Shown in pieces: positions 16,001 to 19,000 of a stretch of 64,000 bases of DNA. Made by a program: the position numbers. Position 1 is the stretch's first letter. Each line of letters starts with the position of its first letter. The stretch is from assembly GCF_044647545.1 (NCBI RefSeq), contig NZ_CP172818.1; one strand, written 5' to 3'. Source of the stretch: Escherichia coli (GTDB lineage Bacteria > Pseudomonadota > Gammaproteobacteria > Enterobacterales > Enterobacteriaceae).

Positions 16001-19000
16001 CGCTCATATTCGAGCGGCTGTCGCCCTGGTTATCGCTGTAGCCACCAACAATCCCAAGCATCCACTCGCCATCATCACCCCAGTGCCCGCTAAACAGGTT
16101 GCCGCTAAGCTGCACCGTAGAAGTGTCTTCATGCTGAGCCAACTGCCCTGCCGCCGTGTAATGATAACGCCCGCCGATAACGCGTAAATTCAGCGTCTGA
16201 CCATCGCCACCAGCGTGATCGCGTCGCTCCATCACAAATGCCTGATTTGCCGCACGTAGGTTATTAAAATATCCACCAACTTTGGCATTCAACACCGGCT
16301 GGTAAGCAGGCGTAGGTCCAGGGTCGGGGGTTGGGTCGGGATCCGGCGTGGGATCAGGATCTGGAGTCGGGTCCGGATCGGGCGGCGGCGTCGGAGTGAC
16401 TTCTTGCGATCGCAGATACCAGTCGTTGTTATCTTCCACCAGCGTATAGTCATACGCCCCCATATTGACGTAGCCGCTTCCTGCCAGACGGAACTGCGCA
16501 TTGTTTTGAAACTGCGTGGGATCAGCTGCGAAATCAACCACTTTAATACCTGTAGATGTCGGCTCACCAATACCCGTAATGGGGTTAATTACCACGGCCG
16601 TGTTGCCAGCAGTATTACCGTTCAATACCAGTTGGTCACTTGCCGAGTCATCGCCGTTTAATTCGCTGTCGAGCAGTAGCGTACCGCCGCCGGTATAATC
16701 ACCATTTACCGTCAGCGTGTCGCCAGCGACGCCATTTTGCAGGCTAATCGCACCGGACGTATTGGTCAGATTGCCATTAACCGTCACGTCGGAAAGATAA
16801 GTCAGGCTGTCAGTTTCAAGGTTGGTATTAAGCTCGCCTGTCAGCGTCACGCCATCGGTGGCATTCACCAACGTACCGTCGCCGCTAAACAGCGAGGCAT
16901 CCAGCACCTGGTTCGTATCCTGCTGCGTCAATCGCAACACAGTACCATCGGTTATGTCGATATCGCCGCCAGAGGTGGCATCGATTGAGCGAATATCCTG
17001 ATTTTGCCGGTTTCAAAAACACCGTCTTCCCCCACCCACAGTGAAGAAACATAAGGAATAATATTCTCCGCTTCACCTTTTAGCGTTCCGTCCTCCACAC
17101 GTACCGCAGACGTCGCAGTGCCGCTGGCGGTCAACTCCAGCGTACCGCCGCCACTTTTAGTCAACGTGCTTACGCTCTCCAGTTGTTGCCCGGTACTATC
17201 CGCCATCAACCCGCCCCATTGCGTATCTACGCCATCCTCAACGTGTATTTCGCCATCAGCGCGCATTTCAATATTCCTGCCCTGACCTGTTGTAGCCGAG
17301 CGAGTGTCAACATCAGTCGTCACATCCATTTCACTGTGTTGTTGGGGATCTGTGAAGATCACTGAACGGTTGTATCTTGTGTCCCCCAATTGCGAATTAT
17401 CGCTGACTTCAAGCGTACCGGAGGCGATTTGCGTATTACCGAGATAACCGTTGTTATTCGCCAGCGTTACGCGCTGATCCCCCGCATTAATGACGACATA
17501 AACGCCATTCTGGCTGGCATCACTGCCGCCAATATGTAAATCATCGCCACTGCTGATATCAACGACATCATTACTGCCAATCACTGTCCCCCCGCTGCCG
17601 CTGATTTGCAGACCGTCATTGTATGAGCTATCGCCATCCCAGGTGGTGAAATCAGAGAGATCCAATACTCCGCCATTTAGCACGATCGATTGCGGATCGC
17701 TCTGCATTGCCCGTAAATCGGCCTGATTCCCCGCTAGCGACAATACGGCGTTATCTTCCACCACAATATCGCCGGTTAATGCCATCGACTGCGCCCCTGT
17801 CAGGAGATAGCTGCCATCTTGCGCTACCGTCAACTGTCCTTCACCCTGAATCGAGCCGGAAAAACCGCCCTGGTTTACGGTAACATTGCCGCCTGCGTCG
17901 ATATTCAAAATGCCATTAGCAAAACCGGTTAATGAGTGCACAAACGTTTGTTGTGTATTGCCAACATTCAGTTCTGCCTGATACTCAGAATGAACAGTGC
18001 TGCCGACCATCAAACCAAAGCAATCCTGCGGATCGCTCTGACAGTGCGTGTCGCCGACATTCATTAACTCATCGCTGCGCCCCAACGTCACCTCGCCATT
18101 CTGGATACTCATCTCGCCGGTAAACGCATTATTGTCGGCATTGAGGACTAACTCTCCCGCTCCCTCTTTCACGATGACTCCCGTTCCGGCAAGAGAATCA
18201 ATCGCGCCATCGTTGCTGGTATTGCCTATTACCAGCGTTTTATCGGCGGCAATGTTGAATTCAGCCACACTATGACCGATATACATAAAGCCCCCCGCCG
18301 CTGCCGTCGCCGAATGGTCATATCCCGAGGCGCTGTTATTTTCATCAATCATCACACCATTGTTTTGGTCATAATTATCATCAACAGAAATATCAATAAG
18401 ATACGGGGATGTGGTGCTGCTGGTATAAATTGCTCCGCCATAACCTTCTGCATAGTTATTGGTAAAGGAGGTATTATTAATTATCGTTTTTCCTGAAAGA
18501 TGTGTGTTATCCGTACTATTATCCGTAACATCAATGGCACCGCCGTCCCCATCACTATAGCTGGTTGATGTATATGCCTGGTTATTATTAAAAGCATCAT
18601 CACTTAAATAGACGTCATTATTGATGGTATAAATTGCACCGCCTTTGCCGTCATTAGCGATGTTATTGTGAAATACGGCGTTAGTGACACGTAAATCGGC
18701 GGCACCGGTATCATTGGTACCGGCAGAATAGATTGCTCCGCCATAGCCTCCTGCAACATTACTGTCGAAAATAACATTCGCAAGATTTATCGTTGAGTTT
18801 TCTTTAGCAAAGATAGCCCCACCATTATTATATTCGCCACTAACCGAGTTATCAGCAAACAGGGTCATCCCTGTTTCATTTTGTGGTGAAATCGTAAATT
18901 CAGCACTTTGCTGCAAAAATACTGCGCCACCGCTGGCATTATTGGCCATACCCGAAAAAATCAACCATTGCCCATCCGCGATGCTCCAGTCCTGCATATT

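Follow-up and report, generated by a model that had tools for sequence, protein, structure and literature searches.

A proline-alternating tract in the Escherichia coli autotransporter gene yfaL, probably a spacer encoded by an old 18-nt repeat and here in a likely pseudogene copy

The proline-rich repeat in a 64,000-nt stretch of Escherichia coli DNA (contig NZ_CP172818.1; hereafter the window) probably encodes an X-Pro spacer of the autotransporter YfaL/EhaC, on an old 18-nt repeat that changes length occasionally, and in the window it lies in what appears to be a pseudogene copy of the gene. The repeat belongs to the reading frame of the Pro-rich linker in yfaL, an ordinary feature that is already known. 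A preliminary description of the window had read it as imperfect repeats encoding this linker, and translation and annotation bear this out. The bounds given there (16310-16395) were right in place and are refined to those in Table 1, on the minus strand. By minus-strand translation the tract consists of 30 codons for 15 consecutive X-Pro dipeptides, TPTPPP(DPDPTP)3DPGPTP, corresponding to residues 182-211 of the 3' ORF and, in a HMMER alignment, to residues 921-950 of intact YfaL (1252 aa). Translation of 16290-16418 on the same strand gives YLRSQEVTPTPPPDPDPTPDPDPTPDPDPTPDPGPTPAYQPVL, in agreement with the peptide described earlier. The codon listing shows that the three DPDPTP copies differ at synonymous third positions only. 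The fourth unit has Gly in the window, compared with Glu, Ala or Asp at the same position in other alleles.

Table 1. Features of the yfaL locus in the window (positions are those of the whole stretch).
Feature	Position	Strand	Details and basis
(X-Pro)15 tract	16308..16397	-	TPTPPP + 3 x DPDPTP + DPGPTP; translation
Three exact DPDPTP peptide copies	16326..16379	-	18-nt units 16362-16379, 16344-16361, 16326-16343; codon listing
Degenerate fourth unit DPGPTP	16308..16325	-	Allele comparison
Frameshift site, GG in place of GGG (gene positions 2149-2151)	17007..17008	-	Base-by-base comparison with L001
5' part of yfaL, signal peptide and passenger domain	16952..19156	-	ORF listing, translation
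3' part of yfaL, 513-aa ORF from internal GTG, including stop codon	15399..16940	-	ORF listing, translation
Autochaperone domain type 1 (Pfam AC_1, PF18883), residues 796-906 of the intact protein	16440..16772	-	E = 7.8e-19
Predicted pore alpha-helix, residues 219-233 of the 3' ORF	16242..16286	-	DSSP on AlphaFold2 model; 4MEE homology
Autotransporter beta-barrel (Pfam PF03797), residues 991-1230 of the intact protein	15468..16187	-	E = 8.3e-33

Genomes with the identical sequence have this gene annotated as yfaL in RefSeq. The annotation of the nearest genome, which is collinear, gives the locus order gyrA-ubiG-yfaL-ypaB-nrdA, with yfaL at its conserved position between ubiG and nrdA. The NCBIfam equivalog NF007285 is matched over model positions 1-1250 with 2724.9 bits (cutoff 1459), a score obtained with an intact allele 1 base apart from the window's copy, which is itself split by a frameshift. 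YfaL/EhaC is a type Va (AIDA-I family) autotransporter adhesin of E. coli. Its N-terminus MRIIFLRKEYLSLLPSMIASLFSANGVAA was read from the translation as a putative signal peptide. The passenger has Pfam matches to AC_1, PATR and Chlam_PMP repeats, i.e., both an autochaperone domain and a beta-helical passenger are present. The passenger ends in the 3' part, which further comprises the autochaperone domain, the tract, the pore helix and a 12-strand beta-barrel. The autochaperone region aligns to the IcsA autochaperone structures 3ML3 and 5KE1, and the domain closes with a ...DWYLRSQ motif directly 5' of the tract; the predicted helix plugging the barrel pore adjoins the tract on the 3' side. 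The tract is located precisely after the autochaperone (junction) domain and before the pore helix. The barrel region matches TIGR01414 (E = 4.7e-111), and the 3' part aligns to the AIDA-I structure PDB 4MEE (E = 2.8e-38), where the tract appears as an insertion separating WYL.S from the helix. An AlphaFold2 model of the 3' part (pLDDT 89) has residues 183-211 as coil and residues 219-233 as helix, followed by the 12-strand barrel. The best solved fold for this model is again 4MEE (TMt 0.92, rmsd 2.1), and the EspP, BrkA and NalP barrels are matched as well; a 12-strand barrel with a pore helix is thus predicted.

The window's copy of yfaL carries a 1-base deletion (-1 frameshift) 610 nt 5' of the tract. 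This results in a premature stop after codon 734 and leaves the tract in a frame other than that of the start codon, so that no intact frame runs from the start codon through the tract. The gene is 3758 nt long in the window, compared with 3759 nt in all 30 of the best matches listed. The deletion was absent from all 1245 matching genomes (best identity 99.0%, 101 nt against 100 nt), and judged by these genomes it is private to the window's sequence. Since the tract is thereby shifted relative to the start codon, the likeliest reading of this copy is a recent pseudogene, or else an isolated sequencing error at the site. The tract is probably untranslated here. The earlier reading as a coding linker holds for the gene family and probably fails for the window's copy because of this private frameshift upstream. 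A generally error-prone assembly was considered and rejected, as a comparison over 48 kb with the nearest genome turned up a single 1-base indel; this bears on the assembly as a whole, and at the GG site itself an isolated error may still have occurred. In the source genome yfaL should be annotated as frameshifted.

Tandem Repeats Finder reported a repeat of period 18 (2.6 copies, 75% matches, score 52) at 16333-16379, and a separate repeat search found three copies with 18-nt spacing, 71-76% identical. The self-identity at a lag of 18 is 0.65, compared with 0.34 ± 0.05 in shuffled sequences. None of 5000 mononucleotide shuffles reached this value; therefore, the 18-nt periodicity is real and far above chance. 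The DNA copies are about 65-75% alike, with scrambled synonymous codons. The longest exact repeat in the tract is 8 nt, against a mean of 13.1 in synonymous recodings made with the genes' own codon usage, and just 2% of the recodings have a longest repeat that short. The proline codon CCG is used in 6 of 16 cases in the tract versus 55 of 79 in the window's reference genes (Fisher p = 0.02). From the codon usage of the genes, a more perfect repeat would be expected for this peptide; the scrambling signal is modest (p about 0.02) and is gone against uniform synonymous usage. With head-to-tail units above chance and a copy number that varies by allele, the tract is a variable-number tandem repeat. 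It had been suggested that such a tract might be mistaken for a CRISPR or minisatellite signal although it is coding linker, and both could be ruled out. A CRISPR array (taken as 21-48 nt repeats with unique spacers of similar size between them) was rejected on account of contiguous 18-nt codon units without spacers inside an annotated CDS. A non-coding minisatellite was rejected since the units are contiguous codons of that CDS. Rfam gave no match at gathering threshold across 15000-19800. A plus-strand ORF (16404-16661) and a small minus-strand ORF (16289-16570) are mechanical ORFs within yfaL. The repeat signal is coding sequence of a known adhesin, and no CRISPR or minisatellite flag is warranted.

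Tract length was surveyed in three systematic samples of 60 from about 5420 complete E. coli genomes, using match-length arithmetic and 19 fetched loci; every length class was checked by sequence except one +6 class. The window's length was found in 41, 40 and 39 genomes per sample (about 67%), and a tract shorter by 18 nt (one unit) in 12, 12 and 13 (about 20%). These two classes (30 and 24 codons) make up about 87% of the sampled genomes; the remaining classes are +6, -6, -12, -15, -24, -36 and +24 nt. Most steps are of 6, 12 or 18 nt; L024 (-15 nt) and L023 (+7 nt) are single exceptions. Among complete E. coli genomes the tract ranges from 18 to 38 codons, in keeping with the expectation that repeat number is prone to vary across yfaL alleles. 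The allele comparison proposed at the outset was carried out and did not return the one copy number everywhere that would speak for an invariant tract. L007 and L011 are one 18-nt unit apart with just 4 flank differences in 424 nt. In L025, GACCCAACCCCC is found three times in perfect tandem, a 12-nt x3 expansion built on the window's 8-nt repeat CCCGACCC. L009 has a 168-nt in-frame microhomology deletion between two occurrences of the DPT motif, which ends in the tract and also takes out part of the autochaperone. L009 excepted, no tract below 18 codons was found in intact-length genes among the complete genomes examined. These events and a 7-nt tandem duplication in L023 are of slippage type. 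The tract appears to be an old, codon-scrambled 18-nt repeat that occasionally changes length by replication slippage or by short-homology deletion at exact repeats of 5-17 nt, giving alleles of 18-38 codons across the species and a stable length within clones. L012 has a 73-nt deletion upstream of the tract. The protein homologue search returned mostly truncated proteins from draft contigs, in a contig-break pattern. Since draft assemblies often break at the tract, only closed genomes or long reads should be used to count copies.

Frequent slippage that switches yfaL or changes its length within clones, as in a contingency (phase-variation) locus, is very improbable. A 7-nt tandem duplication within the tract does frameshift the gene in one complete genome (L023), and four metagenome or Logan proteins (P0032, P0036, P0041 and P0060) are out of frame inside the tract. 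However, an out-of-frame tract was found in only 1 of about 180 sampled rows, and the other frameshifted copies (L012, L021, L022 and the window's) have their lesions outside the tract. The predominance of two length classes, the imperfect repeat with 8 nt as its longest exact match, and codons more scrambled than usage predicts all speak against this reading. Among the 65 genomes of the window's allele, defined by at least 99% identity across the 401-nt tract region, length is uniform and equal to the window's, since a 6-nt gap would already take a genome below 99%; this lack of variation argues that the tract is not a contingency locus. Neither a long perfect repeat nor frequent length change within clones was found. 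The suspected variation in repeat number holds among the yfaL alleles of the species; highly unstable the tract is not, given its short exact repeats and the single length in those 65 genomes.

A spacer function is likely from the position and composition of the tract. Residues N-terminal to the pore helix would emerge on the cell surface, and strict X-Pro alternation would favour an extended polyproline-II-like conformation; for these two reasons the tract may form a semi-rigid, acidic, protease-resistant extracellular stalk. Its length would be roughly 9 nm (30 residues x about 3.1 Å), and it would keep the beta-helical passenger clear of the barrel rim and the LPS layer. In the AlphaFold2 model the tract has no secondary structure and a pLDDT of 73-81, which gives moderate confidence in an extended chain and no proof of polyproline-II. 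We infer an extended, surface-exposed spacer from this lack of predicted secondary structure and from the solved barrel topology. The searchable literature yielded neither an experiment on the YfaL tract nor a discussion of it. It is also conceivable, if improbable, that stalk length has been selected to match the thickness of a lineage's surface layer (O-antigen or capsule) and codon scrambling selected against slippage. In that case the 30- and 24-codon classes and the rarer 18-38 codon alleles would be adaptive settings of adhesin reach.

The tract was further compared in 146 distant homologues (representatives at 50% identity). An (XP)n run of 5 or more was found at the same junction in 55 of them, and a run of at least 12 in 17 (maximum 29 dipeptides). 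All of these tracts lie 330-360 residues from the C-terminus, and homologues at 30-35% identity have the same tract after WYL.S. In 103 of the 146 there is at least 30% Pro within a 30-residue window at the junction. Three long-tract YfaL homologues (P0107, P0109 and P0118) have a precomputed match to PF05887 (procyclin). At the sequence level, these homologues demonstrate that the tract is conserved as a compositional feature at the junction. A functionless low-complexity insertion, tolerated at the domain boundary and drifting neutrally in length, is rather unlikely. It would fit with the 91 homologues that have no (XP)n run of 5 or more, with lengths of 18-38 codons all occurring in annotated intact genes, and with AIDA-I, which secretes without such a tract at the homologous junction; the tract is therefore not needed for secretion as such. 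Yet the units differ at every synonymous position and still encode identical peptides, which points to purifying selection on the X-Pro pattern. The Pro-rich junction in 103 homologues and the lower limit of 18 codons in intact-length genes (L009, the exception, has also lost part of its autochaperone) likewise argue against neutral drift.

Variation in the tract might instead be driven by immune or phage selection on an exposed antigenic region, with no length-tuned mechanical spacer; we regard this as unlikely, if slightly less so than neutral drift. The tract is predicted to be surface-exposed, the residue in the fourth unit varies by allele (G, E, A, D or I), and repeat polymorphism in Bordetella pertactin is a known precedent. 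E. coli diversity is limited to few old alleles, however, and composition and position are kept at 30-40% identity across many genera, which suggests a structural requirement rather than an epitope. yfaL is among the E. coli genes reported to be under positive selection, but the selected sites were not placed in the tract by that study (PMC9110714). Antigenic variation is compatible with a spacer role, and both may coexist.

The tract has little significance beyond annotation hygiene. Tract length (18-38 codons) is a simple yfaL allele marker and may concern users of the surface-display anchor, for which the C-terminal unit of YfaL (residues 786-1250, tract included) is in use (PMC7138890). 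The window's gene corresponds in identity and locus to YfaL/EhaC of E. coli K-12 and O157:H7. In the K-12 allele the tract is equally long and reads TPPSPP(DPDPTP)3DPEPTP. The window allele, from a divergent class (ST648-like genomes), shares 92% identity with K-12 across the 3' 1.6 kb and 80-90% across the gene in full; it differs in its end units TPTPPP and DPGPTP and in its private upstream frameshift. Pertactin of Bordetella contains GGxxP and PQP repeats with copy numbers that differ between alleles; these form loops on the beta-helix and are tied to vaccine-era allele shifts. Both proteins are autotransporters with proline-containing short tandem repeats, those of pertactin in its passenger or C-terminal region. 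In YfaL the tract is a probable junction spacer, and we know of no epidemiological link of the vaccine-era type for it. X-Pro alternation in extended rods or hinges is also found in TonB, (Glu-Pro)n/(Lys-Pro)n, in the Ala-Pro hinge of OmpA and in trypanosome procyclin, (EP)n (PF05887). These are analogous to the YfaL tract, not homologous, and have other cellular locations, the periplasm for TonB and the OmpA hinge as against a probable extracellular one for the YfaL tract. TibA, the self-associating autotransporter of ETEC, has a Pro-rich domain (residues 627-677) that separates the junction (autochaperone) region from its membrane-embedded C-terminal domain (PMC3835316). By this description TibA, another protein with another passenger, resembles YfaL in having a Pro-rich segment at the same position, between the junction and the membrane-embedded domain.

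Translation of window 16290-16418 on the minus strand gives YLRSQEVTPTPPPDPDPTPDPDPTPDPDPTPDPGPTPAYQPVL, which contains an (X-Pro)15 run consisting of TPTPPP, three exact DPDPTP units and DPGPTP. The preliminary description had placed imperfect tandem codon repeats at 16310-16395; this span falls inside the tract and the peptide given for it is contained exactly in the translation. The 18-nt repeat is real, since three measures detect it: Tandem Repeats Finder reported period 18 with 2.6 copies and 75% matches, a repeat search of the tract found three copies at 18-nt spacing (71-76% identity), and the lag-18 self-identity was 0.65 vs 0.34 ± 0.05 for shuffled sequences (0 of 5000 shuffles as high). 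A codon listing showed that the DPDPTP units vary at synonymous third positions only. For so repetitive a peptide, the tract is strikingly imperfect at the DNA level. Exact repeats in it reach 8 nt at most (CCCGACCC); synonymous versions generated with the codon usage of genes in the window had a mean longest repeat of 13.1 nt, and the longest repeat was as short as 8 nt in only 2% of them. The proline codon CCG accounts for 6 of 16 in the tract and 55 of 79 in reference genes (Fisher p = 0.02). Against uniform synonymous usage, the same codon simulation found nothing unusual, so the codons are about as mixed as they can be, with modest statistical backing. A 14-nt inverted repeat (86% complementary, arms 112 nt apart) brackets the tract and is probably due to chance; its arms coincide with the codons for AYQP and DWY.

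Features of yfaL and of other sites in the window (residues are those of the intact 1252-aa YfaL)
Feature	Window position	Strand	Residues	Remark
yfaL 5' ORF	16952-19156	minus		734 aa
yfaL 3' ORF	15399-16940	minus		513 aa, from internal GTG
(X-Pro)15 tract	16308-16397	minus	921-950	30 codons; exactly between AC_1 and beta-barrel
Inverted repeat arms	16291-16304 and 16417-16430
1-nt deletion in yfaL	17007-17008	minus		gene positions 2149-2151, codon 717
PATR and Chlam_PMP repeats			passenger	Pfam
AC_1 autochaperone domain			796-906	Pfam
Autotransporter beta-barrel			991-1230	Pfam
Alpha-2-macroglobulin family gene (yfaS position)	4767-9281	minus		internal stop at codon 670
1868-bp deletion vs FDAARGOS_497	~24547-24555			between two copies of CAGATAAA
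3-nt (GTG) indel vs FDAARGOS_497	22159			intergenic, just 3' of nrdA
Single substitutions vs FDAARGOS_497	3167, 9244, 36432

The assignment of the tract to yfaL as a Pro-rich linker was confirmed by annotation, the NCBIfam equivalog NF007285 and domain position. The surrounding 3.76 kb matches 5425 of 5426 genomes, in E. coli chromosomes annotated as yfaL (AIDA-I family autotransporter adhesin YfaL/EhaC), and the best 30 of these 5425 matches are given as 100.0% identical. The neighbouring genes are gyrA, ubiG, ypaB and nrdA. Intact YfaL from the nearest genome scores 2725 bits against NF007285 (cutoff 1459). The last 513 residues of YfaL align with the solved AIDA-I transport unit 4MEE (E = 2.8e-38); compared with it, the YfaL tract is an insertion between the autochaperone end WYL(R/T)S and the helix. 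An AlphaFold2 model of this fragment (74 homologues, pLDDT 89, pTM 0.86) has no secondary structure at fragment residues 183-211 (pLDDT 73-81), followed by a short strand, a helix (219-233) and a 12-strand barrel. The closest solved fold to the model is 4MEE (TMt 0.92, rmsd 2.1 Å), and next come the EspP, BrkA, Hbp and NalP barrels. The predicted structure agrees with a tract position between autochaperone and barrel. The divergence among yfaL alleles is bimodal and lies mainly in the passenger. With the whole gene (15399-19156) as query, identity is 80-90% in 4178 genomes and 95% or more in 1245; the 3' 1.6 kb (15399-17000) gives 90-95% in the majority (4281). This pattern suggests that the passenger falls into deep allele classes, combined with a translocator that is more conserved.

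The linker had been assumed to be translated, which most likely does not hold for the window copy because of an upstream frameshift: yfaL is present as two ORFs rather than one. The window has GG where the nearest genome has GGG. This is the sole difference between the two over 3.76 kb, and the flanks are also identical for 1.5 kb to either side. The 1-base deletion was absent from all 1245 matching complete E. coli genomes when searched with a 100-nt probe across the site (best match 99.0%, 101 nt vs 100 nt), and yfaL is 3759 nt in each of the best 30 of 5425 matches vs 3758 nt in the window. The deletion is therefore private to the window. In a 48-kb comparison with strain FDAARGOS_497, the window shows only three substitutions, the yfaL deletion, a 3-nt indel and an 1868-bp deletion; with so few differences the assembly is not broadly indel-error-prone. 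The yfaL frameshift is probably real, an isolated error at the site being still conceivable. The 3' ORF carries no signal peptide. Judged by the reading frames, the tract is in the yfaL linker frame, yet is most likely untranslated in this genome owing to the frameshift. Disruption of yfaL is not rare among complete genomes. One sample of 60 contained three copies annotated as 'frameshifted', all with lesions outside the tract, and one genome without yfaL. Elsewhere in the window, the 1868-bp deletion, flanked by a short direct repeat, takes the greater part of a gene for an MFS transporter, together with the 5' portion of a divergently oriented gene for a LysR-family regulator. The stop in the alpha-2-macroglobulin family gene is common to the window and the nearest genome, where the gene is annotated as a pseudogene.

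Tract copy number was compared across yfaL alleles, the check put forward in the preliminary description, and it varies from 18 to 38 codons. Three systematic samples (60 records each, different queries) were taken from ~5420 complete genomes. The window length was found in 41, 40 and 39 records, a length 18 nt shorter in 12, 12 and 13, and other lengths in 7, 8 and 8 (+6, -6, -12, -15, -24, -36 and +24 nt, as well as a small number of disrupted genes). Retrieval of representative loci placed the length differences in the tract. Counted from the first T/N codon after QEV/QEA, the fetched loci have 18 codons (L011, TPPLPPDPDPDPTPDPIP), 22 (L008), 24 (L007, TPPSPPDPDPDPTPDPDPTPDPIP), 25 (L024, -15 nt relative to the window), 26 (L010), 28 (L005), 32 (L002, L004 and L006) and 38 (L025); the window and K-12 have 30, and an Escherichia sp. 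protein has 34. The K-12 tract, equal in length to that of the window, reads TPPSPP(DPDPTP)3DPEPTP. Distinct flank haplotypes accompany most length classes. All 65 genomes of the window allele class have the same tract length, the class being defined by at least 99% identity over 401 nt, a threshold that shuts out even a 6-nt gap. The tract is not hypervariable, because these 65 genomes agree and two length classes make up ~87% of genomes. Thus the expected length variability was found, and the instability had been overstated. It is unlikely that the tract is a contingency locus, given the imperfect repeat, the stable length within the window allele class and just one out-of-frame tract in ~180 sampled rows.

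Several variants look as slippage, or deletion at short homologies, would be expected to leave them. In L025, three copies of GACCCAACCCCC stand in perfect tandem, an expansion at the 8-nt repeat that is longest in the window tract. L007 and L011 are one 18-nt unit apart with flanks differing at only 4 of 424 bases, and L006 and L008 are 10 codons apart with five flank differences. In L023 a 7-nt tandem duplication (TGACCCA) frameshifts yfaL. L009 (NZ_CP178670.1) has a 168-nt in-frame deletion from an upstream AADPT to a PDPT unit of the tract, with the DPT motif shared by both ends. It takes the last 41 autochaperone-region residues (...QFQNN...DWYLRSQEV) plus the first 15 tract residues, and the gene is still annotated as intact. 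The tract is also a very frequent end point of draft and metagenome contigs (partial proteins P0025, P0026 and P0033-P0084; loci L015-L020). Two clusters of partial proteins (519 and 303 members) begin at its 3' edge, and in Shigella sonnei over 40 partial proteins end at differing residues inside it. Six contigs, which come from independent samples and were built with several assemblers, start at most 2 nt from the YQP codon. The likely cause is a fall in coverage or branching of the assembly graph at a polymorphic site.

The repeat units are identical in peptide while every synonymous site differs, which indicates purifying selection on the X-Pro pattern. Among 146 representatives (50%-identity clusters of proteins related to the YfaL C-terminal unit), (X-Pro)n with n of at least 5 occurs in 55, at least 8 in 31 and at least 12 in 17 (maximum 29). 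All tracts with n of at least 5 sit 330-360 residues from the C-terminus, and in 103 of 146 a 30-residue window at the junction is at least 30% Pro. That the tract is neutral low-complexity filler is made less likely by two things: the X-Pro pattern is conserved, and it recurs at the same junction, that of the autochaperone domain and the pore helix. Since the N-terminus of the pore helix points to the cell surface in solved autotransporters, the tract would emerge outside the barrel. Strict alternation of X and Pro favours an extended, polyproline-II-like chain with a rise of ~3.1 Å per residue. At that rise 30 residues would form a stalk of roughly 9 nm, and 18-38 codons one of roughly 5.6-11.8 nm. 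As an acidic, protease-resistant spacer, the tract may hold the beta-helical passenger at a distance from both barrel and LPS. A literature search found no experiment on the YfaL tract; published display vectors carry YfaL residues 786-1250, tract included (PMC7138890). A role in antigenic variation is possible as a secondary effect, as the tract is predicted to be surface-exposed and yfaL is reported to be under positive selection (PMC9110714). Composition and position are, however, conserved across genera, which argues for structure first.

Analogues of the YfaL tract are the polymorphic repeats of pertactin, for its length variation, and the X-Pro rods found in TonB, the OmpA hinge and procyclin, for the tract itself. 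Three YfaL homologues carry precomputed hits to PF05887, the procyclin family. That yfaL has a Pro-rich junction segment is already known. The length census, codon scrambling and private frameshift are small additions and no new kind of thing. This kind of feature has been described for TibA, whose 'additional proline-rich domain' (PMC3835316) follows the junction region and precedes the membrane domain, a position matching that of the YfaL tract.
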